Positions 9,023 through 31,821 of a DNA stretch of 32,000 nucleotides are shown piece after piece; position 1 is the first letter of the stretch, and every line of letters starts with the position of its first letter. The position numbers were made by a program, and so were the translations under genes. This stretch comes from Candidatus Saccharimonadota bacterium. GTDB taxonomy: Bacteria; Pseudomonadota; Gammaproteobacteria; Enterobacterales; Enterobacteriaceae. The notes beneath the pieces are model-generated. The model did not search any database. It saw only the letters and a list, made by a program, of their open reading frames with translations, and was not told the origin of the DNA. The DNA lies in contig CP188087.1 of the NCBI GenBank assembly GCA_049942775.1, positions 501,872 to 533,871 of the forward strand. Direction: 5' to 3'.

Positions 9023-10468
9023 TTATTTTTGCAAATAATATAAAAATTTTATACAAGGAATTCTATGTTTACTTAACATTACCGAAGCTCTTACACCTAA
9101 GGTTAAATCTTTATCTTCATTATTTGAATTAACAATATGCAACTTAGTTTTATTAGTAACAATTAGTCTTAAGAAACCATGATGAGTTGGTTCAACTTCA
9201 TAAGAAAAAGAAATATTTTTTGGAGGATAACGGAACAAATCAGGAGCAAAGCTTGTCAATTTTAAATATGCAGGTTCTAGTATTTTTTGATTAGCATATG
9301 TAGATACCAATTGTCTAGTTTCTAAATCAGGAAGTAATTTTTTAAATTTTTTAAACAATTCTTCTCTAGTTTCATTTGGTACTAAATAATGACTAACTTT
9401 CAAATCTACATCTTGATAATCATTCATAAATCCAGGAACTAACGAGTTAGTACCTTTTAGATCTTCATATCTTTCATATAATTTTTGAGAATAATTTAAA
9501 TTATCCTTTGAAAAATTTAATGAACGAAGTCCTTTCCAACTGATTGCATTAGGATCCCCAAATGAAAAATTAGGCAAATAACCATCTTTTGTATTAAAAC
9601 TAGAATTCTTATCCAAAAAATAATTTTGAACACTTGTTAGATCTTCATCATTATGACATTTACCAAACGAATGATCAACAGGAAAATCATCAGTTAATTT
9701 AGTTTCATGATCATCGTTTTTATTTATTCTTCCTCGATGATTTTTATTTACATAATCTTGAATTTCTTCTATTGAAACATGATCTTTTAAGAAAACATCA
9801 TATTTTGTATGAAAACTAAATTTATCTTCTTCTTTTTTGTCTTTGATAAGAGAATCTTTATTATTTTCAATTTGTACTTTTTGGTTTTTATTATCGGAAA
9901 TTTCTTGTTTCTTAACAGGAGGATTGTTATGTGATAACACATCAAAATTAGCATGAAAAACTGGTTTGTCAATATTTTTTAAAGAATTATTATTGTTATC
10001 TACAATAGTTGCATCATTTTTATTAATTTCATTACTATCATTAGTATTTGTTTTATCTGTATTTTGTAAATCTAAATTTTCTAAAACGTCATTATTTTTA
10101 ATAAAGTCAGTGTTAATAATATTATCAAAAATATTTTCTAAACCTTGTTTCATAATATCTTTAGAAAAAAAAGAATTAAAATGAACTAAAAAATTTTCTA
10201 AATTTAGAGTAACATCGTTAGAATTAATATTTTCATTTTGTACATCTTTTTTTGAATTTGGTTTGGAATAAATTAATGAATTGTCAGAAGGAATGAAATT
10301 ATCATCTATAATAACTGAAGAATTAGTTTTTTGTTCTAAATTATCAACTTTATTATTTTCTTTTCTTATTAATCTGTCTTTATCTATAGTTGTAGAAGAA
10401 AAATTACGAAAATCGTTTGTATTATTTATTAGTCTTCTTATATTATCATTTGATAGAATTGATGACAT
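9023..10468 (-). CDS. hypothetical protein, Asn/Asp/Lys-rich, no recognisable family
   Basis: This 481-aa frame is by far the longest open frame in the region. The N-terminal two thirds or so is low-complexity N/D/K/S-rich. The last 200 aa or so have a normal composition with aromatic and Pro/Gly residues (GYLPNFSFGDPNAISWKGLRSLNF ... FRYPPKNISFSYEVEPTHHGFLRLIV). I see no TM segment, signal peptide or known motif. Confidence 0.6.
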   Translation of the reverse strand: MSSILSNDNIRRLINNTNDFRNFSSTTIDKDRLIRKENNKVDNLEQKTNSSVIIDDNFIPSDNSLIYSKPNSKKDVQNENINSNDVTLNLENFLVHFNSFFSKDIMKQGLENIFDNIINTDFIKNNDVLENLDLQNTDKTNTNDSNEINKNDATIVDNNNNSLKNIDKPVFHANFDVLSHNNPPVKKQEISDNKNQKVQIENNKDSLIKDKKEEDKFSFHTKYDVFLKDHVSIEEIQDYVNKNHRGRINKNDDHETKLTDDFPVDHSFGKCHNDEDLTSVQNYFLDKNSSFNTKDGYLPNFSFGDPNAISWKGLRSLNFSKDNLNYSQKLYERYEDLKGTNSLVPGFMNDYQDVDLKVSHYLVPNETREELFKKFKKLLPDLETRQLVSTYANQKILEPAYLKLTSFAPDLFRYPPKNISFSYEVEPTHHGFLRLIVTNKTKLHIVNSNNEDKDLTLGVRASVMLSKHRIPCIKFLYYLQK

Positions 10469-15647: not shown

Positions 15648-15982
15648 TAATTTATGTTTCCTACTTTAAAAAATAAATGTTCAACTAACTTTTAAAATAC
15701 AAAAATAACTATTTTTATTATAAATTTAAAAAATTTTTTAATATTTAATGGAAAAATAAAACTTGTAAAATTATTTTAAATTTTAAAATTTAAAATTTTT
15801 GTAAAAATTTTTTAGTATATTAAAAACAAATTTTCTAAAAAATTTTCTATATTATGTTAAATAAAATTTTTAAAATTTAATAACTATTAACAATCATTAT
15901 TGATAATCTAAGACGGATTTTAAAAACAATAGTTTTAAGATTGAATTTTCAATATTAAAATTAATAACAAGATAAAAATCTT

Positions 15983-16000
15983 AAAAAAAAAAAAAAAAAA
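15983..16000. repeat. Poly(A) homopolymer, 18 nt
   Basis: Counted directly, in the trxA-ilvC spacer. Confidence 0.95.
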
Positions 16001-16073
16001 TATAGAAATATTTTTTTAATTTACAAAATCTCACTTTTAATTTTTTTTATTAAAATAAGAGTAAATTAAAAAT

Positions 16074-17608: not shown

Positions 17609-19474
17609 TTAACTAAAATTATTTTTCATCAGAAATTTATTTAATTTATTGATATCTCTTATAGCTCCTTTATCAGCGCTAGTAACTAACAAGGAATAAA
17701 TTTTTAAAGAGCTAGAAATTGTTCTTTTTTTTCTATTTGGAAGATATGAATTTTGTTTTTTAGAATTTTCATATTTTTTTCTATTTGAAAGCTCTAATTC
17801 CGAAATCTCTAAATTTATAGTTCTATTTGGAACATCAATTTTGATTACGTCACCATTTTTTATTAAAGCAATTTCTCCACCGTTAGCAGCTTCTGGTGAT
17901 ACATGCCCGATAGATATTCCAGATGTTCCTCCTGAAAATCTTCCATCAGTAATTAAAGCACAATTTCTGTCTAGCTTCATAGATTTTAAATATGTAGTAG
18001 GATATAACATTTCTTGCATTCCCGGACCACCTTTCGGTCCTTCATATCGTATAACTATAACATCTCCAAATCTAATTTTATGATTTAATATATCGTAAAC
18101 AGCATCTTCCTGAGAATCGTATACTTTAGCTTTTCCTAAAAATACATAATTTTTTTTTTCTATTGCTGCTGTTTTTACAATACAACCATTTTTTGCTATA
18201 TTTCCGAATAAAATAGCTAAACCACCTTCTTTGCTATATGAATTTTTAACAGAACGTATACAACCTCTTTTAGAATCATTATCTAACGATTTCCATTTAG
18301 AATTTTGAGAAAACGGAACTATAGTTCTATAACCTCCTGGTCCTGATAAAAACATATTAATTACATTTTTATTCTTTGTATTAGAAATATCATATATTTT
18401 AAGAGTTTCCTTCAAAGTCATACCTAAAATATTTTTAACAGAAGTATCAATTAACTTTTCTTTATTTAATTCACCTAAAATACGCATAACTCCACCAGCT
18501 CTATGCATGTCTTCCATGTGAAATTTATTACTACTAGGAGCAATTTTACAAATGTGTGGAATCTTTTTAGATAATTCATCTATATCAGAAAGATTAAAAT
18601 TTATTTTTCCTTCTTTTGCAGCAGCTAATAAATGTAAAATAGTATTAGTAGATCCTCCCATTGCAATATCAAGTTTCATTGCATTTTTAAACGAAGATTC
18701 ACAAGCTATATTTCTAGGTAAAACATCTGGATTATTTTCTTCATACCAAGATTTAGCTATTTGAACAATAATTTGACCTGCTTGTAAGAATAATTTTTTT
18801 CTATCCTTGTGTGTGGCTAATAATGTTCCATTTCCAGGCAAAGATAATCCCATTGCTTCAGTTAAACAGTTCATCGAATTAGCAGTGAATAATCCTGAAC
18901 AAGATCCACAAGTAGGACATGCAGAACTTTCTATTTGAGAAATTTCATTATTATTTACATTTTTTACACTTATTTCAATTGCATCAACTAAATTAATTTT
19001 TTTATTTTTGTTTTCTTGTATTCCAGCTTCCATTGGACCACCAGAAACAAATATAGTTGGAATATTTAATCGTAATGATGCCATTAACATTCCAGGAGTA
19101 ATTTTATCACAATTTGATATACAAACCATAGCATCTGCACAATGTGCATTAATCATATACTCTACTGAATCTGCAATTAGTTCTCTAGATGGTAATGAAT
19201 ACATCATTCCGGAATGTCCCATAGCAATTCCATCATCAATAGCTATTGTATTAAATTCTTTAGCAACACCTCCACAAATTTTTATTTCGTTCGATACCAA
19301 TGATCCTAATTGTTTTAAGTGAATGTGACCAGGTACAAATTCAGTGAAAGAATTTACAACAGCTATAATTGGTTTTTCAAAATCTGAATCTTTCATCCCT
19401 GTAGCTTTCCATAATGCTCTTGCACCAGTCATATTTTTTCCATGCGTGGTAGTAAAAGATCTATATCTTGGCAT
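17609..19474 (-). CDS. ilvD: dihydroxy-acid dehydratase
   Basis: 621-aa [29 protein letters not shown] matches the IlvD N-terminus. The cluster ligand regions ([19 protein letters not shown]) and the C-terminal GRFSGGTSG motif are present. Confidence 0.96.
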
Positions 19475-19665
19475 TTTCCCTCATTATTATTTTTCAGAAA
19501 AGAAAGGATATAACAATTAATTTAAGGATATAAAAATTGTTTGATTTAAGAATTGTAAAAAAAAAATTGATTTTTTAGCAAGAAGCTAAGAAGCAAAAAA
19601 TAAAAAGTAAGATATATTTTTTATTTTTTTTTGTTTTATTGTAAGAGCTACAAACAAAACTATTT

Positions 19666-19738
19666 CAGGGGTAGAGGGAATTGAACCCACAACCTTCGGT
19701 TTTGGAGACCGAAACTCTTCCTATTGAGCTATACCCCT
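19666..19738 (-). tRNA. tRNA-Trp (anticodon CCA)
   Basis: The reverse complement is AGGGGTA-TA-GCTCAATAGGAAGAGT-T-TCGGT-CTCCAAA-ACCGA-AGGTT-GTGGG-TTCAATT-CCCTC-TACCCCT-G. The AGGGG 5' end and G73 match E. coli tRNA-Trp. There is one T-T mismatch in the T stem. Confidence 0.88.
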
Positions 19739-19899
19739 ATTATTTTTTAAAATTTTTCAAATTCATTAATTTATAATATAATAATTATATAAAAAATTGC
19801 AAAAAAATCAAATAATTTGTTTTCAGTAAATTGAAATATCCATTTTTATTAAAAAATATTTCGAAATTTTTCAAAGTTTAAAACCATAAGGAAAAAAAA

Positions 19900-21120
19900 T
19901 TGAATTACAAACATCCAATATATTTAGATTACGCAGCAACAACACCCATGGATCCATTAATAGTAAAAAAAATGTTAAAATATTTAACTTTAGATGGAAC
20001 TTTTGGAAATGCAGCATCACGTTCTCATATATTAGGCTGGAAAGCTGAAGAATCTGTTGACGAATCAAGAAATATTATAGCTCAATTAATTAATGCAGAT
20101 CCTAGAGAAATAATATTTACTTCCGGAGCTACAGAATCAAATAATTTAGCTATAAAAGGATATTGTGATTTTTATCAAAAAAAAGGAAAACATGTCATTA
20201 CTAGTAATACAGAACATAAATCTGTATTAGATACTTGTAGATTTTTAGAAAAGAACAACTTCAAAGTCACATATGTTGATCCAGACTCTAATGGATTAAT
20301 TAATCCTACAGAAATAGAAGAAAAAATCTCCAGGGAAACAATTCTTGTCTCAATTATGTTTGTGAATAATGAAACAGGAGTAATACAAAAGATAAACGAA
20401 ATATCAAAAATATGTAACGAAAAAAATGTTGTGTTACATGTTGATGCAACTCAAGCTATTGGGAAAATTAACATTGATTTAAAAAAAATAAACATAGGAT
20501 TAATGTCTTTTTCAGGGCATAAAATATATGGCCCTAAAGGAATTGGAGCTCTTTATGTAAGTAGAAGTCCTAATAGAATACGTTTATCAGCTCAAATTCA
20601 TGGAGGTGGTCATGAAAGAGGAATGAGATCTGGAACTTTACCTGTTCATCAAATTGTAGGAATGGGAGAAGCTTTTCGACTTGCAAAACTTAATTTTGTT
20701 ATAGAATGTAAAAAATTGAATTTTTTAAAAAATAAGTTATGGAACGGTTTAAAAGACATAGAAGAAGTTTATTTAAATGGAAATTTTGAAATTACTTCTC
20801 CTCATATTTTAAATATTAGTTTTAATTATGTAGAAGGGGAATCTTTAATTATGGCCTTGAAAAACTTAGCTGTTTCGTCTGGTTCAGCTTGTACATCTAC
20901 TAGTTTAGAACCGTCGTACGTGTTAAGAGCTATGGGAGTAAAAGATGAACTTGCACATAGTTCAATTAGATTTTCTTTAGGAAAATTTACTACTGAAGAA
21001 GAAATTAATTATACGATCAAATCAGTCCGTTCTGCAATTGTTCGTTTACGTAAATTATCTCCATTATGGGAAATGTTTAAATCAGGAATAGATTTAAAAT
21101 CAATAAAATGGAATAAATAA
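19900..21120 (+). CDS. iscS: cysteine desulfurase IscS
   Basis: 406-aa [17 protein letters not shown] is the N-terminal region, [17 protein letters not shown] carries the PLP-lysine, and SSGSACTS carries the catalytic Cys. The start is TTG at 19900, with AAGGA about 8 nt upstream. Confidence 0.95.
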
Positions 21121-21146
21121 ATTAAATTAAGTTAACGAGGATAAAA

Positions 21147-21575
21147 ATGTCATATAGTAAAAAAGTAATAGATCACTATGAAAATCCTAGAAATGTAGGA
21201 TCTTTTTCAGAAGACGATATTAATTCTGACAAAGATATAAATATTGGAAATGGTTTGGTAGGTTCACCTTCTTGTGGTGATGTCATGAAATTACAAATTA
21301 AAGTTAACAATGAAGGTATAATTGAAGATGCAAAATTTAAAACATACGGATGTGGTTCTGCTATTGCTGCTAGTTCATTAGCTACTGAATTAGTTAAAGG
21401 AAAATCTTTAAAAGAAGCTAAAAATATAAAAAATGTTAATATAGCCCAAGAATTGGATTTACCTCCTGTTAAAATACATTGTTCTATTTTAGCAGAAGAT
21501 GCAATTAAAGCAGCAATTTTAGATTACAAAAATAAAAAAATAAAACAAAATCAACAGTTTGATTCTAAATCATAA
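21147..21575 (+). CDS. iscU: iron-sulfur cluster scaffold IscU
   Basis: 142-aa ORF. KVIDHYENPRNVGSF, CGDVMKLQI, YGCGSAIASS and LPPVKIHCSILAEDAIKAA are all near-identical to E. coli IscU. GAGGA lies upstream. There are a small N-terminal insertion and a C-terminal tail. Confidence 0.96.
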   Translation: MSYSKKVIDHYENPRNVGSFSEDDINSDKDINIGNGLVGSPSCGDVMKLQIKVNNEGIIEDAKFKTYGCGSAIAASSLATELVKGKSLKEAKNIKNVNIAQELDLPPVKIHCSILAEDAIKAAILDYKNKKIKQNQQFDSKS

Positions 21576-21725
21576 ATATAACAATTTATCAAAATTTTTT
21601 AAATTCAATAAAAGTTAGGTATATTTTTAAAATATTTATAAATAAAATAAATTTTAGAACTTTTAAAAAAAATTAGAAATATTTTAGTTAAAATTTTTCT
21701 ATTTATTTAATCAGAAGTATTATTA

Positions 21726-24700
21726 GATCGATCCCATGACTGACATCGATGCAAGTTAGTTCTACTACTGATCATAGATGCAAGTACGATGAGCGATCGA
21801 TCCCATGACTGACATCGATGATGCAAGTTAGTTCTACTACTGATCATAGATGCAAGTACGATGAGCGATCGATCCCATGACTGACATCGATGCAAGTTAG
21901 TTCTACTACTGATCATAGATGCAAGTACGATGAGCGATCGATCCCATGACTGACATCGATGCAAGTTAGTTCTACTACTGATCATAGATGCAAGTACGAT
22001 GAGCGATCGATCCCATGACTGACATCGATGCAAGTTAGTTCTACTACTGATCATAGATGCAAGTACGATGAGCGATCGATCCCATGACTGACATCGATGC
22101 AAGTTAGTTCTACTACTGATCATAGATGCAAGTACGATGAGCGATCGATCCCATGACTGACATCGATGCAAGTTAGTTCTACTACTGATCATAGATGCAA
22201 GTACGATGAGCGATGAGCGATCGATCCCATGACTGACATCGATGCAAGTTAGTTCTACTACTGATCATAGATGCAAGTACGATGAGCGATCGATCCCATG
22301 ACTGACATCGATGCAAGTTAGTTCTACTACTGATCATAGATGCAAGTACGATGAGCGATCGATCCCATGACTGACATCGATGCAAGTTAGTTCTACTACT
22401 GATCATAGATGCAAGTACGATGAGCGATCGATCCCATGACTGACATCGATGCAAGTTAGTTCTACTACTGATCATAGATGCAAGTACGATGAGCGATCGA
22501 TCCCATGACTGACATCGATGCAAGTTAGTTCTACTACTGATCATAGATGCAAGTACGATGAGCGATCGATCCCATGACTGACATCGATGCAAGTTAGTTC
22601 TACTACTGATCATAGATGCAAGTACGATGAGCGATCGATCCCATGACTGACATCGATGCAAGTTAGTTCTACTACTGATCATAGATGCAAGTACGATGAG
22701 CGATCGATCCCATGACTGACATCGATGCAAGTTAGTTCTACTACTGATCATAGATGCAAGTACGATGAGCGATCGATCCCATGACTGACATCGATGCAAG
22801 TTAGTTCTACTACTGATCATAGATGCAAGTACGATGAGCGATCGATCCCATGACTGACATCGATGCAAGTTAGTTCTACTACTGATCATAGATGCAAGTA
22901 CGATGAGCTGATCATGACATCGATGCAAGTACGATGAGCGAGATGATGAGCGATCGATCCCATGACTGACATCGATGCAAGTTAGTTCTACTACTGATCA
23001 TAGATGCAAGTACGATGAGCGATCGATGACTGACATCGATGCAAGTTAGTTCTACTACTGATCATAGATGCAAGTACGATGCGATCGAATGACTGACATC
23101 GATGCAAGTTAGTTCTACTACTGATCATAGATGCAAGTACGATGAGCGATCGATCCCATGACTGACATCGATGCAAGATCATAGATGCAAGTACGATGAG
23201 CGATCGATCCCATGACTGACATCGATGCAAGTTAGTTCTACTACTGATCATAGATGCAAGTACGATGAGCGATCGATGCAAGATCCCATGACTGACATCG
23301 ATGCAAGTTAGTTCTACTACTGATCATAGATGCAAGTACGATGAGCGATCGATCCCATGACTGACATCGATGCAAGTTAGTTCTGATCATAGATGCAATC
23401 ATAGATGCAAGTACGATGAGCGATCGATAGATGACTGACATCGATGCAAGTCGATGCAAGTTAGTTCTACTACTGATCATAGATGCAAGTACGATGAGCG
23501 ATCGATCCCATGACTGACATCGATGCAAGTTAGTTCTACTACTGATCATAGATGCAAGTACGATGAGCGATCGATCATGATGACTGACATCGATGCAAGT
23601 TAGTTCTACTACTGATCATAGATGCAAGTACGATGAGCGATCGATCCCATGACTGACATCGATGCAAGTTAGTTCTACTACTGATCATAGATGCAAGTAC
23701 GATGAGCGATCGATCCCATGACTGACATCGATGCAAGTTAGTTCTACTACTGATCATAGATGCAAGTACGATACGATGAGCGATCGATGCAAGATCCCAT
23801 GACATAGATGCAAGACATCGATGCAAGTTCTACTACTGATCATAGATGCAAGTACGATGAGCGATCGATCCCATGACTGACATCGATGCAAGTTAGTTCT
23901 GATCATAGATCCCATGACTGACATCGATGCAAGTTAGTTCTACTACTGATCATAGATGCAAGTACGATGAGCGATCGATCCCATGACTGACATCGATGCA
24001 AGTTAGTTCTACTGACTGATCATAGATGCAAGTACGATGAGCGATCGATCCCATGACTGACATCGATGCAAGTTAGTTCTACTACTGATCATAGATGCAA
24101 GTACGATGAGCGATCGATCCCATGACTGACATCGATGCAAGTTAGTTTACTACTACTCTGATAGATGCAAGTACGATGAGCGATCGATCCCATGACTGAC
24201 ATCGATGCAAGTTAGTTCTACTACTGATCATAGATGCAAGTACGATGAGCGATCGATCCCATGACTGACATCGATGCAAGTTAGTTCTACTACTGATCAT
24301 AGATGCAAGTACGATGAGCGATCGATCCCATGACTGACATCGATGCAAGTTAGTTCTACTACTGATCATAGATGCAAGTACGATGAGCGATCGATCCCAT
24401 GACTGACATCTCTGATCATAGATGCAAGTACGATGAGCGATCGATCCCATGACTGACATCGATGCAAGTTAGTTCTACTACTGATCATAGATGCAAGTAC
24501 GATGAGCGATCGATTGACTACTATGCTGATCTGATAGATGCAAGTACGATGAGCGATCGATCCCATGACATGACATGATCATAGATGCAATGCAAGTTAG
24601 ATCGATCCCATGACTGACATCGATGCAAGTTAGTTCTACTACTGATCATAGATGCAAGTACGATGAGCGATCGATCCCATGACTGACATCGATGCAAGTT

Positions 24701-27001
24701 AGTTCTACTACTGATCATAGATGCAAGTACGATGAGCGATCGATCCCATGACTGACATCTGATGCAAGTTAGTTCTACTACTGATCATAGATGCAAGTAC
24801 GATGAGCGATCGATCCCATGACTGACATCGATGCAAGTTAGTTCTACTACTGATCATAGATGCAAGTACGATGAGCGATCGATCCCATGACTGACATCGA
24901 TGCAAGTTAGTTCTATGCTACTGATCATAGATGCAAGTACGATGAGCGATCGATCCCATGACTGACATCGATGCAAGTTGTTCTACTAGTTCTATCTGAT
25001 CATAGATGCAAGTACGATGACGATCGATCCCATGACTGACATCGATGCAAGTTAGTTCTACTACTGATCATAGATGCAAGTACGATGAGCGATCGATCCC
25101 ATGACTGACATCCATGATGCAAGTTAGTTCTACTACTGATCATAGATGCAAGTACGATGAGCGATCGATCCCATGACTGACATCGATGCAAGTTAGTTCT
25201 ACTACTGATCATAGATGCAAGTACGATGAGCGATGATCCCATGACTGACATCGATGCAAGTTAGTTCTACTACTGATCATAGATGCAAGTACGATGAGCG
25301 ATCGATCCCATGACTGACATCGATGCAAGTTAGTTCTACTCAAGTACGATGAGCGATCGATCCCATGACTGACATCGATGCAAGTTAGTTCTACTACTGA
25401 TCATAGATGCAAGTACGATGAGCGATCGATCCCATGACTGACATCGATGCAAGTTAGTTCTACTACTGATCATAGATGCAAGTACGATGAGCGATCGATC
25501 CCATGACTGACATCGATGCAAGTTAGTTCTACTACTGATCTGATCATAGATGCAAGTACGATGAGCGATCGATCCCATGACTGACATCGATGCAAGTTAG
25601 TTCTACTACTGATCATAGATGCAAGTACGATGAGCGATCGATCCCATGACTGACATCGATGCAAGTTAGTTCTACTACTGATCATAGATGCAAGTACGAT
25701 GAGCGATCGATCCCATGACTGACATCGATGCAAGTTAGTTCTACTACTGATCATAGATGCAAGTACGATGAGCGATCGATCCCATGACTGACATCGATGC
25801 AAGAGTACGATGAGCGATCGATCCCATGACTGACATCGATGCAAGTTAGTTCTACTACTGATCATAGATGCAAGTACGATGAGCGATCGATCCCATGACT
25901 GACATCGACATACTGATCATACTGATGCAAGTACGATGAGCGATCGATCCCATGACTGACATCGATGCAAGTTAGTTCTACTACTGATCATAGATGCAAG
26001 TACGATGAGCGATCGATCCCATGACTGACATCGATGCAAGTTAGTTCTACTACTGATCATAGATGCAAGTACGATGAGCGATCGATCCCATGACTGACAT
26101 CGATGCAAGTTAGTTCTACTACTGATCATAGATGCAAGTACGATGAGCGATCGATCCCATGACTGACATCGATGCAAGTTAGTTCTACTACTGATCATAG
26201 ATGCAAGTACGATGAGCGATCGATCCCATGACTGACATCGATGCAAGTTAGTTCTACTACTGATCATAGATGCAAGTACGATGAGCGATCGATCCCATGA
26301 TCGATCCAAGTTAGTTCTACTACTGATCATAGATGCAAGTACGATGAGCGATCGATCCCATGACTGACATCGATGCAAGATCTGATCATCGATCCCAGAT
26401 GCAAGTTCTACTACTGATCATAGATGCAAGTACGATCGATCCCATGACTGACCGATGAGAGCGATCGATCCCATGACTGACATCGATGCAAGTTAGTTCT
26501 ACTACTGATCATAGATGCAAGTACGATGAGCGATCGATCCCATGACTGACATCGATGCAAGTTAGTTCTACTACTGATCATAGATGCAAGTACGATGAGC
26601 GATCGATCCCATGACTGACATCGATGCAAGTTAGTTCTACTACTGATCATAGATGCAAGTACGATGAGCGATCGATCCCATGACTGACATCGATGCAAGT
26701 TAGTTCTACTACTGATCATAGATGCAAGTACGATGAGCGATCGATCCCATGACTGACATCGATGCAAGTTAGTTCTACTACTGATCATAGATGCAAGCGA
26801 TATCCCATGACGATGCAAGTTAGTTCTACTACTGATCATAGATGCAAGTACGATGAGCGATCGATCCCATGACTGACATCGATGCAAGTTAGTTCTACTA
26901 CTGATCATGACATCGATGCAAGATGATGCAATGACTGACATCGATGCAAGTTAGTTCTACTACTGATCATAGATGCAAGTACGATGAGCGATCGATCCCA
27001 T
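21726..27001. repeat. 69-bp-period tandem repeat array, about 76 unit equivalents. Consensus: ATCGATCCCATGACTGACATCGATGCAAGTTAGTTCTACTACTGATCATAGATGCAAGTACGATGAGCG
   Basis: Direct reading places unit starts at 21727 and 21796 (69 bp apart), then 21868 (69 plus a 3-bp insertion). The pattern continues to 27001. The unit has 30 G+C of 69 by hand count, against flanks that are visibly about one-fifth G+C. Both junctions with AT-rich spacer are abrupt. There are no spacers, so it is not CRISPR. Confidence 0.97.
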
Positions 27002-27050
27002 AATAAAAACACAATTGTCTGAAGATTTTTAAAAAAAAAAGATAAAACTC

Positions 27051-27575
27051 ATGAAAAATTATTTTAAAATTTTTAATTTACCTATTTCATTTCAACTAGA
27101 TAAAAAACAGCTAACAAAAAATTTTTATGAACTTCAAAAAAAATATCATCCTGATTTTTGTATTGATGAAGATAAAATAAAAAAGTCTAATTTAATGAAA
27201 AAATCCATTAAAATTAATCATGCCTATAAAATTTTGATTGATCCTATAAAAAGAGCTGAATATTATATACGTATAAATTATCTAAATTTCGAAAAAGAAA
27301 AAAAAGATATTCCATTTGATATAATTTTTTTAAAAAAACATATGAAGTTATGTGAAGAACTAGAACATATTAAAAAATCTTCTAAAAAAAATGAAAAAAT
27401 AATGCAATTTTTTTTAAAAAAAATTGACGATTTAATTTTTTTATATTTGCATAAAATTGAAAGAAAATTTATCAACAAAGAATGGGAAACTGCTATTACT
27501 ATTTTAAATAAATTATTTTTTTTAAAGAGAATAAAATATTCTACAATTCAAGAAATTAGTAATTTAAATAAATAA
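27051..27575 (+). CDS. hscB: Fe-S cluster co-chaperone HscB
   Basis: 174-aa ORF. NYFKIFNLPISFQLDKKQLTKNFYELQKKYHPD is the J-domain with its HPD motif. Length is close to E. coli HscB, and hscA follows. Confidence 0.9.
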   Translation: MKNYFKIFNLPISFQLDKKQLTKNFYELQKKYHPDFCIDEDKIKKSNLMKKSIKINHAYKILIDPIKRAEYYIRINYLNFEKEKKDIPFDIIFLKKHMKLCEELEHIKKSSKKNEKIMQFFLKKIDDLIFLYLHKIERKFINKEWETAITILNKLFFLKRIKYSTIQEISNLNK

Positions 27576-27597
27576 ATTGAAAAATTAAGGTTTTTAT

Positions 27598-29079
27598 ATG
27601 TCTAAAAAAAAAAAATTATGCATTGGATTTGATTTAGGGACGACAAATTCTTTAGTTGCAAGATTTTCCTGTAATAAAATCAAAATATTAAAAGATGAAA
27701 ATGGAAAGAAATTGTTGCCTTCAGTTGTTCAATATAAAAAAAATAAAATTTTAGTTGGTTGGAATGCAGTAAAAAACTATAAAGACGACTCAGAAAATAC
27801 AATTTTTTCTATAAAAAGACTAGTAGGATTATCAGAAAAAAAAATAAAAGTTTTATACCCTAAATTGCCGTATTTGTATAAAAAAAACAACGATAACAAA
27901 GTTTGTATCAAAACAATTCAAGGATATATACAAGTTTCTTGTATTATTAGTCAAATTTTATTTGTATTAAAAGAAAGAGCAATAAATTTTTTTAAGCAAG
28001 AAATTGATCATTCAGTAATAACTGTTCCGGCATATTTTGATAATAAACAAAGAAAAGAAATCAAAAAATCAGCTTTCTTAGCTGGATTAAAAAATGTACG
28101 ATTATTAAATGAACCTACTGCAGCGGCTATTGCATATGGATGTGATTTAAAAAAAACAGAATTAGTTGCTGTTTATGATTTAGGAGGGGGTACTTTTGAC
28201 TTTTCTTTATTAAAATTAGAAAATGAAGTTTTTGAAGTATTAACCACAACTGGAAATTCTCATTTAGGTGGAGATGATTTTGATTTTTTATTGTTAAAAT
28301 ATATATATAAAAAATATCATTTATTTTTCGCTAATTCAAAAACCAAAGCAGAGATGTTTTTAAAAGTAAAAATTTTAAAAACAGAACTAACTTTTAAAGA
28401 AAAAGTAATCTTTAAAATTCAAGATTTTATAATAGAAATCACTAGAAATGAATTTAATCAATTAATTAATAAATTAGTAGAAAAAACACTTATAATTTGC
28501 AAAAAAGCACTAATATCTGTTGAAGTTCAGATAAATGAAATTAATGAGATTATATTAGTAGGTGGTTCTACTTATATTCCTATTATTCGAGACAAGATAG
28601 CTTTATTTTTTAAAAAAAGCCCCCTTTTTTTTGTTAATCCAGAAGAAGCTGTTGTAATCGGATCTGCTATTCATTCTGAAAATCTTTCTGAAAATATTAA
28701 TAAAAAAAAGAAATTTTTGTTAATTGATGTATTGCATTTATCTTTAGGAATTGAAGTAATGGGAGGGATAGTTGAAAAAATAATTACAAAAAACGAAAAA
28801 TTACCAACAGAATGCACAAAAGTTTTTACTAATTTTCAAGATAATCAAACTTCAATTAAGATACATATTTTGCAGGGAGAAGATAAATTAGTAAAAAACT
28901 GTCGTTCTTTATTTTGTTTTTCATTATCAGGAATAACTCCTCAATTAGCTGGAGTGAATAGAATTTTTGTTAATTTTAAAATCGACAATGATGGATTATT
29001 GCATGTTACTGCAATAGATAAAATTAGTAAAAATAGAAAAAATGTTATAATCAATACCGTTGATAGTAAAAATATTTAA
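27598..29079 (+). CDS. hscA: Fe-S cluster chaperone HscA (Hsp70 family), C-terminally short
   Basis: 493-aa ORF. IGFDLGTTNSLVA, VITVPAYFDNKQR, LLNEPTAAAIAYG, VYDLGGGTFDFSLL and LVGGSTYIPIIR are Hsp70/HscA ATPase motifs. The substrate-binding beta domain is present through DNDGLLHVTAIDK. The ORF then stops about 110 aa earlier than E. coli HscA (616 aa). Confidence 0.9.
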   Translation: MSKKKKLCIGFDLGTTNSLVARFSCNKIKILKDENGKKLLPSVVQYKKNKILVGWNAVKNYKDDSENTIFSIKRLVGLSEKKIKVLYPKLPYLYKKNNDNKVCIKTIQGYIQVSCIISQILFVLKERAINFFKQEIDHSVITVPAYFDNKQRKEIKKSAFLAGLKNVRLLNEPTAAAIAYGCDLKKTELVAVYDLGGGTFDFSLLKLENEVFEVLTTTGNSHLGGDDFDFLLLKYIYKKYHLFFANSKTKAEMFLKVKILKTELTFKEKVIFKIQDFIIEITRNEFNQLINKLVEKTLIICKKALISVEVQINEINEIILVGGSTYIPIIRDKIALFFKKSPLFFVNPEEAVVIGSAIHSENLSENINKKKKFLLIDVLHLSLGIEVMGGIVEKIITKNEKLPTECTKVFTNFQDNQTSIKIHILQGEDKLVKNCRSLFCFSLSGITPQLAGVNRIFVNFKIDNDGLLHVTAIDKISKNRKNVIINTVDSKNI

Positions 29080-29188
29080 AGTTGTTATTTTTTTTAAAAT
29101 ATTAATATTTTAAAAAAAATAATTTTTAAAAAACATTTGAGTAAAATTTAAATTTTTTAGTTAACTATAATATTTTAGGAGTTATAAA

Positions 29189-29524
29189 GTGATTAAAATA
29201 GTTTTTTTACCACACAAAATAATATTACCGAAGGGAAAAATAATTTTTGTAAAGTCTGGAGAAACTATATTAGACGTTGCCTTATCTCATAACATTAATA
29301 TAGATCATGCTTGTGAAAAATCATGTGCTTGTAGTACTTGTCATTGTATAGTAGAAAAAGGATTTTTTTCGCTTTCTAAAATGGAAGAAAAAGAAGAAGA
29401 TTTATTAGATAAAGCTTGGGGTTTAACAGAATTTAGTAGATTATCCTGTCAAGCTAGAATAGGAAATGAAAATCTAGAAATAAAAATTCCTTTTTATTCA
29501 TTAAATTATGTAAAAGAAAAATAA
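29189..29524 (+). CDS. fdx: 2Fe-2S ferredoxin (ISC-type)
   Basis: 111-aa [17 protein letters not shown] and RLSCQARI supply the four cluster cysteines and are near-identical to E. coli Fdx. The start is GTG at 29189, with TAGGAG upstream. Confidence 0.93.
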
Positions 29525-30979: not shown

Positions 30980-31620
30980 TTATTTTTGTAATTTTTGTAT
31001 TTTCATTTTTATTATTTCTTTTGATTTGTTATCAATTTGATATTTTAAGCTTCTTTTCCAAGTAATTACAGCTAATTTTTTTTTATTTTCTAAACAATAT
31101 ATATCACCTTGTTTATCCATAAAAATATTTTCCCAACCTTTTTCTTTGATTTCAGAAATTGTTTTTTTTGCTTTTTTGATTTCTTTTTGCTCAATTTCTA
31201 AATCAAGTATTCTAAATTTAATTATATTTTTTAAATTCTCTTCGTTTGTCATGTCTTTTAGTATGTTTAATATTTTTTCAGATTGAACGAGTTCATTATT
31301 ATTTATATGTTCTTTGGATAGTTTTAACCCCATTAATAGAGAATATGTATTTTTATTTTTTAATATATATTTTATTATTTCATGTTTTTTTTTTTTATAT
31401 CTGTATTTTTAATTATTTTTTCATCTTCTTGAAATTGATTGTTTGATAGATTTTTCTTTTCAAGAATGCTGTTTTTTCTTTCTGAGTTTTTTAAGCATAT
31501 GAATGTAGTTGCTAATATAACTATAGATAATATTAACATTATTATTAAGTGTGTTTTTTTTTCGTTACTTTTCATTTTAGAAAATAAATATTTCTTGATA
31601 AAAAAAATTATATTTTTCAT
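30980..31620 (-). pseudogene. yfgM: yfgM-like membrane-anchored TPR-like protein, split into two frames at an A12 tract
   Basis: The upstream ORF (31375-31620) has a short N-terminus and one TM helix (HLIIMLILSIVILATTFICL), like YfgM. The downstream ORF (30980-31333) aligns to the E. coli YfgM C-terminal half: EENLKNIIKFRILDLEIEQKEIKKAKKTISEIKEKGWENIFMDKQGD against DENLKAVINLRLARVQVQLKQADAALKTLDTIKGEGWAAIVADLRGE. The two frames overlap across the T12 run at 31385-31396 (A12 on the coding strand). The position upstream of der matches E. coli. Confidence 0.65.
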
Positions 31621-31757: not shown

Positions 31758-31821
31758 TTATACACAGTTAATCCACATCAAAAAAGCTTTATATATCAAT
31801 GGTTAAACATAGTTATCCACA
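31758..31821 (+). promoter_or_regulatory. Cluster of three co-oriented DnaA boxes, likely the edge of oriC
   Basis: TTATACACA (31758-31766) fits TTATNCACA. TAATCCACA (31769-31777) has one mismatch. TTATCCACA (31813-31821) is the perfect consensus. Box starts are spaced 11 and 44 bp apart. The cluster lies in ORF-free DNA at the end of the window. Confidence 0.55.

Follow-up and report, generated by a model that had tools for sequence, protein, structure and literature searches.

A G+C-rich tandem array between iscU and hscB in Tetraneura Buchnera, probably an inherited minisatellite

The spacer between iscU and hscB on the chromosome of Buchnera aphidicola (Tetraneura sorini) holds a 5.3-kb array of a 69-bp unit, which is very probably a genuine, vertically inherited, non-coding minisatellite of Tetraneura Buchnera. 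The array occupies positions 21726-27001 of the 32,000-nucleotide stretch of CP188087 that was analysed as a whole and is hereafter called the window, and it interrupts the gene string iscS-iscU-hscB-hscA-fdx; the HscB encoded in the window is 100% identical to HscB of B. aphidicola (Tetraneura sorini), CP188087. Buchnera is the textbook case of a genome that is static, lacks repeats and decays toward A+T. The array is a bacterial minisatellite in a class of genomes not previously known to have any, and its foreign composition is held against the mutational bias.

A kilobase-scale satellite of 43% G+C has thus persisted through at least two host speciations, during which most neutral G/C sites were replaced. 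Its persistence, its changes in copy number and its retention of G/C imply that reduced genomes are still able to gain and maintain new non-coding DNA. Either selection keeps a new cis-element, or homogenisation overrides the mutational bias; both alternatives bear on reduced-genome evolution, and both are testable. The array is apparently undescribed: no description of it was found in the literature on Buchnera tandem repeats, Tetraneura, Eriosoma lanigerum, hscB and oriC, and the announcement of the T. sorini symbiont genome does not mention it (PMC12243488).

Structure and authenticity of the array

Tandem Repeats Finder detects the 69-bp period across the entire array, with the consensus unit GATCGATCCCATGACTGACATCGATGCAAGTTAGTTCTACTACTGATCATAGATGCAAGTACGATGAGC, in which 30 of 69 positions are G or C. 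The G+C fraction is 0.43-0.44 in each 500-bp segment from 22001 to 27000, as against 0.15-0.34 in the rest of the window, 0.18 directly to the right of the array and about 20% in the surroundings overall. Both ends are abrupt (left, ...tattattag/atcgatccc; right, ...gatcgatcccat/aataaaaac, the slash marking the boundary). The initial annotation, which was made from the sequence alone, had already described this head-to-tail array with its period, its hand-counted 30 of 69 G+C and its two sharp junctions, and all of these are reproduced here; relative to the unit that it listed first, at 21727-21795, the start moves one base upstream, to the G at 21726. Its further statements also hold: direct reading of the junctions reveals neither a target-site duplication nor a terminal inverted repeat, no integrase or transposase is found among the window open reading frames (ORFs) with assignable function, the unit matches no known element in the collections searched, and the array is highly unusual on a Buchnera chromosome.

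The unit consists of two related sub-units, of 29 bp (ATCGATGCAAGTTAGTTCTACTACTGATC) and 40 bp (ATAGATGCAAGTACGATGAGCGATCGATCCCATGACTGAC), both of which open with AT[CA]GATGCAAGT and begin with the same core. A motif scan for the 14-nt core ATAGATGCAAGTAC, allowing at most two mismatches, yields 73 instances in the window against a chance expectation of 0.14, every one of them within the array and on the + strand. Short palindromes abound in the array, with 229 occurrences of GATC (20 expected), 147 of ATCGAT, 74 of TGATCA and 73 of CGATCG. Perfect 69-mers account for 37 of 65 anchor-delimited segments (2553 of 5276 bp), and the remainder contains 83 breakpoints, almost exclusively insertions, deletions or phase jumps.

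An assembly artefact in the broad sense, that is, a misjoined host satellite, a chimera, a vector or adapter concatemer or a planted sequence, has some points in its favour. The abundance of the restriction-site palindromes just listed gives the unit a hand-typed look, and the interior of the array is scrambled in an assembly built from noisy Nanopore reads with an N50 below the array length. Specifically, CP188087 is a miniasm assembly of Nanopore reads (Guppy 4.2.3, read N50 4.5 kb, 42x depth) that was corrected with Racon and then with three Pilon polishing rounds using 75-bp paired Illumina reads, all reads coming from a single gall colony (PMC12243488). However, both junctions are recovered in two separately built sets of Logan contigs, one from Illumina run SRR33632137 and the other from Nanopore run SRR32628561 (runs identified in PMC12243488). 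Contigs leaving iscU extend 14 nt (L003, Illumina) and 30 nt (L004, Nanopore) into the array, those running into hscB begin 26 nt (L002, Illumina) and 18 nt (L001, Nanopore) inside it, and the junction sequence is identical to the window in all four. Each short-read contig examined stopped at the array, where a long repeat would break assembly. The presence of the junctions in contigs from two separate runs rules out both a planted sequence and a chimera confined to one read. Moreover, T. akinire has a homologous array with a unit of its own in this spacer, as does T. ulmi, both in an independently produced assembly and in the reads behind it, and the difference in array length between T. sorini and T. 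akinire (3115 bp) accounts for the difference in genome size (3008 bp). The shared location in three Buchnera genomes also excludes, indirectly, that the unit is a host nuclear satellite or derives from a vector or synthetic construct. An artefact is therefore extremely improbable, and the suggestion in the initial annotation that the array might not be chromosomal is contradicted by the same evidence; the array is a real part of the Buchnera chromosome.

The exact length of the T. sorini array is a separate matter. About 1.1 kb beside the unique left flank is nearly perfect, whereas the most irregular copies are in the interior. There are 873 distinct non-consensus 20-mers in the array, only 51 of which recur, and the breakpoints are indels or jumps at short shared words, with hardly any base substitutions. 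The T. sorini assembly has 83 breakpoints at 42x depth, the four times deeper T. akinire assembly nine at 181x. Given a read N50 below the array length and polishing reads of 75 bp, which cannot be uniquely placed inside the array, the irregular interior copies and the exact T. sorini length probably represent, for the most part, Nanopore consensus or polishing noise, and the copy number in this genome is uncertain. Against this explanation, irregular copies are also found less than 200 bp from the right junction, a region in which anchored read pairs ought to have been of help. More generally, such arrays break short-read assemblies, and polished Nanopore assemblies render them unreliably. 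A small observation on read quality comes from the poly-A tract before hscB (27027-27036), which is 10 A long in both the window and the Illumina contig but 9 A long in the Nanopore contig L001, a typical homopolymer error.

Homologous arrays, age and constraint

The initial annotation had proposed comparing the iscU-hscB spacer among sister strains, and this comparison uncovers arrays in two further Tetraneura Buchnera and spacers of only about 50-130 bp in five other Buchnera. In T. akinire (CP188088, L005), the spacer is 2366 bp long, of which the array takes up 2161 bp. Its unit is also 69 bp and differs from that of T. sorini at four fixed positions of 69, perfect copies being dominant in each species. 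The two species agree in every base of the left junction, and the right junction differs by 9 nt of unit; the left spacer aligns with 127 matches and 22 mismatches. In T. ulmi (OZ060366, L008), sequenced in an independent project, the spacer of 528 bp contains at least nine 38-bp units, spanning at least 0.34 kb, of two types, A (ATAGATGCAAGTACTATGAAATCACTGTTGTTACTCGA) and B (ATAGATGCAAGTACTATTGGATCGCTTTCACTACTTGC). HscB of T. ulmi is only 68% identical to its counterpart in the window, yet the array there has the identical 14-nt core. Read-derived contigs of T. akinire and T. ulmi (L006, L007 and L009) begin within the respective arrays. The T. ulmi array includes a run of exactly 20 N (L008 9812-9831), a length that completes one A unit; the run may be a masked stretch or a gap that hides further copies. 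The copy number at the iscU-hscB locus is accordingly about 76 in T. sorini, 31 in T. akinire and at least nine in T. ulmi. In the five Buchnera with short spacers, the distance is 52 bp in Eriosoma lanigerum (OZ060395, L102), about 60 bp in E. harunire (CP188086, L020), 92 bp in L105, 101 bp in CP186013 (L103) and about 120 bp in L013; the contig of a fourth Tetraneura-like Buchnera (L101, SRR14373458) ends within hscB, short of the array.

Because the T. sorini sub-units and the T. ulmi units share the core, the arrays are homologous and probably derive from an ancestral unit of about 38 bp. The presence of the array in three species, together with the short spacer in five other Buchnera, indicates that it arose in the Tetraneura lineage before the three host species split. 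A very recent acquisition, either horizontal or anew in T. sorini, was one of the options put forward in the initial annotation, and the near-identity of the copies, the foreign composition and the lack of a match elsewhere in the window might seem to speak for it. However, near-identity is what homogenisation predicts; the left boundary is common to T. akinire and the right one nearly so, and T. ulmi has a related array with the same core. Nor was similar DNA found in the collections searched: an exact 26-mer of the unit has no match in one genome per bacterial species or in viral contigs, and blastn of three units against plasmids, phages and Escherichia coli genomes returned no match. A recent origin is thus highly unlikely. 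What differs between the lineages is the copy number alone, so that a recent expansion in T. sorini, the other half of that suggestion, is possible.

Other searches with the unit gave only background. Local alignment of the flanking spacers with the unit, as potential decayed copies, was no better than for shuffled sequences; the last 19 nt of the left flank match the T. ulmi B unit at 11 of 19 positions by eye, which is not significant enough to use; and blastn-short of the unit found only chance 11-mers in six Buchnera loci and in the remainder of the window. A search of JGI metagenomes with the core-pair pattern returned 11 human-gut contigs (L090-L100; 44-50% G+C), in which a 22-bp tandem repeat, ATAGATGCAAGTACTTACGATG, of about five copies shares the 14-nt core (e.g., L095 3260-3380). 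This repeat is intergenic, downstream of a 692-residue ORF, with no rep gene nearby. The pattern fixes only about 14 bases inside a tandem repeat, and these matches were accordingly judged to be due to chance.

The G/C positions of the unit are kept far better than those of neutral sequence. Between T. sorini and T. akinire, 28 of the 30 G/C sites of the consensus unit are retained, compared with 31 of 79 at four-fold degenerate sites (39%; Fisher p = 2e-7 against the unit) and 45 of 89 in intergenic spacers (51%; p = 2e-5). Overall divergence between the two is 12% at four-fold sites and 15-18% of aligned sites in the flanking spacers, against 4 of 69 in the unit. Between T. sorini and T. ulmi, 94% of the four-fold G/C sites have changed, whereas the 14-nt core, identical in all three arrays, has not. 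Array G+C across the species is 39-43%. The retention of G/C positions shows that the unit sequence is constrained, and because neutral, unbiased homogenisation would let the consensus change at the mutation rate, the core is under sequence-specific constraint. The rest of the unit is constrained on the shorter timescale, with its composition being held on the longer one. By these comparisons, the G+C-rich array has resisted the strong A+T drift of the genome.

The array shows the features by which a bacterial minisatellite, or variable-number tandem repeat (VNTR), is recognised: head-to-tail units in the 10-100 bp range, a copy number that differs among relatives, and homogenisation within lineages combined with fixed differences between them. 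Other classes fit less well. There is no Rfam match in the array, a scan of 19000-29000 having given only tRNA-Trp and one sub-threshold chance match, both outside it. The units abut without the spacers of a clustered regularly interspaced short palindromic repeats (CRISPR) array, and no cas gene is present among the assignable window ORFs. The flanks, CAGAAGTATTATTAG and AATAAAAACACAATT, have no common duplication, and the assignable ORFs are housekeeping genes, which does not agree with an insertion sequence, a miniature inverted-repeat transposable element or an integrated element. Origin repeats of the iteron or DnaA-box type are not indicated either, with no DnaA box in the array and no rep gene identified, and neither are repetitive extragenic palindromes (REPs) or bacterial interspersed mosaic elements (BIMEs), the core being confined to the array in the window and the sister loci examined.

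Given that 69 is a multiple of 3, a repeat protein built from the 23-residue repeat LIVLASMISSRTNLHRCQSWDRS could conceivably be encoded by the minus strand of the array. The frame is open through the perfect units of T. sorini and T. akinire, the longest open stretch being 248 residues. However, the frame is not conserved across species: six of six frames are closed in the 38-bp units of T. ulmi, and an amino acid is altered at three of the four positions that distinguish T. sorini from T. akinire (consensus units compared by eye). The 248-residue frame has no homologue among 5.8 billion protein clusters, and the Pfam scores (Ribosomal_S19, RNase_3_N and others) are weak matches summed over repeats, with no single significant stretch. 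A single open frame of six is also the chance expectation for 69 bp at 43% G+C. A coding function is therefore very improbable.

Possible function and mechanism of copy change

We hold, with about even confidence, that the constraint reflects selection on a cis-acting motif, either a binding site or a hairpin, present in many copies and serving a protein or RNA partner; this is the most likely of the explanations for it. Exact conservation of the 14-nt core fits a recognition site for such a partner better than a purely structural property. Several observations weigh against this interpretation or against parts of the wider account of the array. Selection on length is made less likely by a copy number that ranges from at least nine to about 76 units, and the absence of the core elsewhere in the window and in the sister loci implies that it is not a dispersed regulatory site. 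Beyond the core, the similarity of the T. ulmi units to those of T. sorini does not exceed that of shuffled sequences. The hairpin z-scores, given below, are modest, and the predicted stems differ among the three species. The case for transcription across the array draws only on the absence of a consensus promoter.

Alternatively, the array might be a neutral, self-propagating satellite, in which G+C-rich and palindrome-rich units amplify better and selection operates among copies, with no benefit to the cell. We regard this as possible, if on the unlikely side. Such a satellite would agree with the several-fold variation of copy number between species, with the hairpin potential of the unit and with the turnover of non-core sequence that separates T. 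ulmi from T. sorini, and also with the occurrence of unrelated arrays, some of them A+T-rich, near this locus in Eriosoma Buchnera, which points to an array-prone lineage. Conversely, the exact 14-nt core in three species, despite the change of 94% of neutral G/C sites, looks like sequence-specific recognition and less like a structural property of a general kind, and the predicted stems differ among the three species.

The Eriosoma arrays are distinct from the one described here. In E. lanigerum (OZ060395), two adjacent arrays (L102 83-434 and 437-688) lie upstream of yfgM, on the oriC side of the record. The first has a 74-bp A+T-rich unit in 4.8 copies with 100% identity, and the second, a 43-bp unit of 42% G+C in 5.9 copies that contains TAGATGCATGTA, an 11/12 match to the Tetraneura core. 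This match falls exactly on the conserved core (p ~0.015 by shuffling, after the fact), and the 43-bp unit forms a strong predicted hairpin (z -3.3 on one strand, -4.9 on the other). A relationship between this array and the Tetraneura core is suggestive but not established. In E. harunire (CP188086; L020 10863-12471, running off the locus end), a different array lies between the yfgM 5' end and the oriC side, with a 62-bp unit, a 186-bp higher-order period, at least 26 copies, 22% G+C and a sequence that is strongly pyrimidine-rich on the strand read here.

A replication-related element tied to oriC, such as a DnaA- or SeqA-like titration or sequestration site or an iteron-type origin, is a further candidate. 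The right end of the array is 4.8 kb from two DnaA boxes that mark the presumptive oriC, GATC is more than ten-fold over expectation in the array, and the Eriosoma arrays adjoin oriC, one of them sharing TAGATGCAWGTA at the after-the-fact p-value just given. The position of the Eriosoma arrays is not independent evidence, however, because they were found only by looking near this locus. Matches to TTATNCACA in the window are limited to 20361, 31758 and 31813, so that no DnaA box lies within the array; GATC is not enriched in T. ulmi, with one per 38-bp B unit and none in A, and has the expected frequency outside the array; and no rep-type initiator gene is found among the assignable window ORFs. 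We consider an oriC-linked role improbable.

Returning to selection on a cis-acting motif, the core TAGATGCAAGTA (possibly TAGATGCAWGTA, if the 43-bp array of E. lanigerum is related) might be recognised by a trans-acting factor that either Buchnera or the host encodes. Eriosomatine Buchnera would then have evolved tandem platforms of binding sites or hairpins less than ~10 kb from oriC, for chromosome replication or segregation, or else for processing or insulation of the isc-hsc transcript. This proposal is speculative, and we rate it as rather doubtful; if true, it would add a new, selectively maintained cis-element to a genome class thought to be nearly without regulatory DNA.

The near-identity of copies within species, the fixed changes between species and the several-fold differences in copy number are the pattern of concerted evolution. 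Replication slippage or unequal exchange between sister chromosomes probably drives copy gain, loss and homogenisation, and the short palindromes and hairpin potential of the unit would favour both processes. Two-unit stretches fold better than shuffled sequences on the + strand in all three species (z -2.0 to -3.4), and T. ulmi has a near-perfect 20-bp dyad, TACTTGCAT-AG-ATGCAAGTA. The isc-hsc operon is transcribed toward the DnaA boxes, and if these mark oriC, transcription would meet oncoming replication forks; this head-on arrangement, about 5 kb from oriC, might favour fork stalling and template switching. The array itself is probably transcribed as part of the operon, given that hscB, hscA and fdx are intact in three species and that a promoter scan found no consensus promoter on the + strand in front of hscB; a terminator scan found no terminator in the array.

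The rep helicase gene adjoins ilvC in E. lanigerum, CP186013 and L105. It is not at this position in T. sorini, T. akinire or T. ulmi, and tblastn detects no remnant in the window; the trxA-ilvC spacer of T. sorini, from which rep is missing, spans 15648-16073. The loss of rep could contribute to the stalling of forks, but it is no more than a lead, since arrays are also present in Eriosoma, which has rep.

Relation to known repeats and genomic neighbourhood

Mycobacterial interspersed repetitive units (MIRU-VNTR) are tandem units of ~40-100 bp between operon genes, non-mobile, with copy numbers that vary among relatives, and they occur at dozens of loci with few copies each. The Buchnera array resembles them in consisting of intercistronic, non-mobile tandem units with a copy number varying between related lineages, and differs in being a single locus in the 32 kb examined, with 31-76 copies, a strongly foreign composition and a location in a repeat-poor genome class. 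REPs and BIMEs are G+C-richer imperfect palindromes of ~35-40 bp in the intercistronic spacers of enterobacteria; hundreds of REP copies are scattered, many of them in inverted pairs, and there is a link to REP-associated tyrosine transposases (RAYTs). The common traits are the intercistronic position, the higher G+C and a probable ancestral unit of ~38 bp with dyad symmetry, whereas the Buchnera motif is restricted to one head-to-tail array. Plasmid iterons are direct repeats of 17-22 bp, few in number, that adjoin a rep gene and an A+T-rich region. Like these, the array has a short conserved core directly repeated at regular spacing, as in a protein-binding array; unlike them, it has no identified rep gene, and its core forms part of a longer unit, of 29/40 bp or 38 bp.

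The closest symbiont analogue is found in Portiera of the whitefly Bemisia tabaci lineage, where tandem repeats in enlarged intergenic regions have been linked to the loss of replication and repair genes (PMC3673631). Both are cases of exceptional intergenic tandem repeats in the reduced genome of an obligate insect symbiont. The Portiera repeats, however, are many dispersed microsatellites with a spike at 7 bp, accompanied by genome rearrangements (PMC3673631), as opposed to the single long array of Buchnera, in which a G+C-rich 69-bp unit has a conserved core and the order of genes is unchanged. For Buchnera, the only tandem-repeat class that we found reported is that of the pTrp plasmid, with 18- and 55-nt units flanking trpEG, the 55-nt unit carrying a DnaA box and being a proposed origin (PMC4898801). 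Those repeats are plasmid-borne, whereas the present array is chromosomal and without a DnaA box.

The features of the array and its surroundings are listed in Table 1.

Table 1. Coordinates, in the window, of the array, its parts and the adjacent features
Feature	Position	Strand	Remarks
Tandem array	21726..27001	none	69-bp unit, ~76 unit equivalents, 43% G+C, 5276 bp
First complete unit (GATCGATCCC...GATGAGC)	21726..21794	+	read from the sequence
14-nt core ATAGATGCAAGTAC, first instance	21774..21787	+	motif scan
Tandem Repeats Finder block	21726..23900		30.6 copies
Tandem Repeats Finder block	23908..25803		27.4 copies
Tandem Repeats Finder block	25787..26379		
Tandem Repeats Finder block	26459..26797		4.9 copies, 100% identity
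Cleanest block, beside unique left flank	21726..22908		consensus-type 20-mers 93%, 100% and 77% in three 500-bp bins
Interior with most irregular copies	22909..26458		insertions, deletions and phase jumps, nearly all singletons
iscS (cysteine desulfurase), first operon gene	19900..21120	+	
iscU, directly upstream of the array	21147..21575	+	
Left spacer, iscU stop to array	21576..21725	+	9% G+C
Right spacer, array to hscB start	27002..27050	+	no consensus sigma-70 promoter on + strand
hscB, directly downstream of the array	27051..27575	+	
hscA and fdx, remaining operon genes	27598..29524	+	intact in all three Tetraneura Buchnera
Two DnaA boxes	31758..31821		presumptive oriC; TTATACACA at 31758, TTATCCACA at 31813

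As the DnaA boxes near the end of the window mark the presumptive oriC, the window would end at the boundary of a reoriented record. The gene order gidA-oriC-yfgM-der in L101 and L103 supports this placement of oriC; GC skew in the window tracks gene orientation and is uninformative as a guide to the origin.

The assignable long ORFs of the window are ordinary Buchnera genes, namely, miaA, pgi, orn, hslVU, fpr, an epmA-like gene, dapF, cyaY, rho, trxA, ilvCD, iscSU, hscBA, fdx, der and a yfgM remnant. A 481-residue ORF on the - strand (9023-10468), with an N/D/K-rich N-terminal part, has no Pfam or NCBIfam match, and an ORF of this length without a family match is unusual in a 534-kb Buchnera genome. 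HscA, encoded on the + strand (27598-29079), has 493 residues, compared with 609 in L105. The yfgM homologue on the - strand (30980-31333) encodes 117 residues that match only the C-terminal part of the TPR_21 profile; the corresponding protein is 128 residues long in T. akinire, and in the remaining Buchnera examined, T. ulmi among them, its length is about 200.

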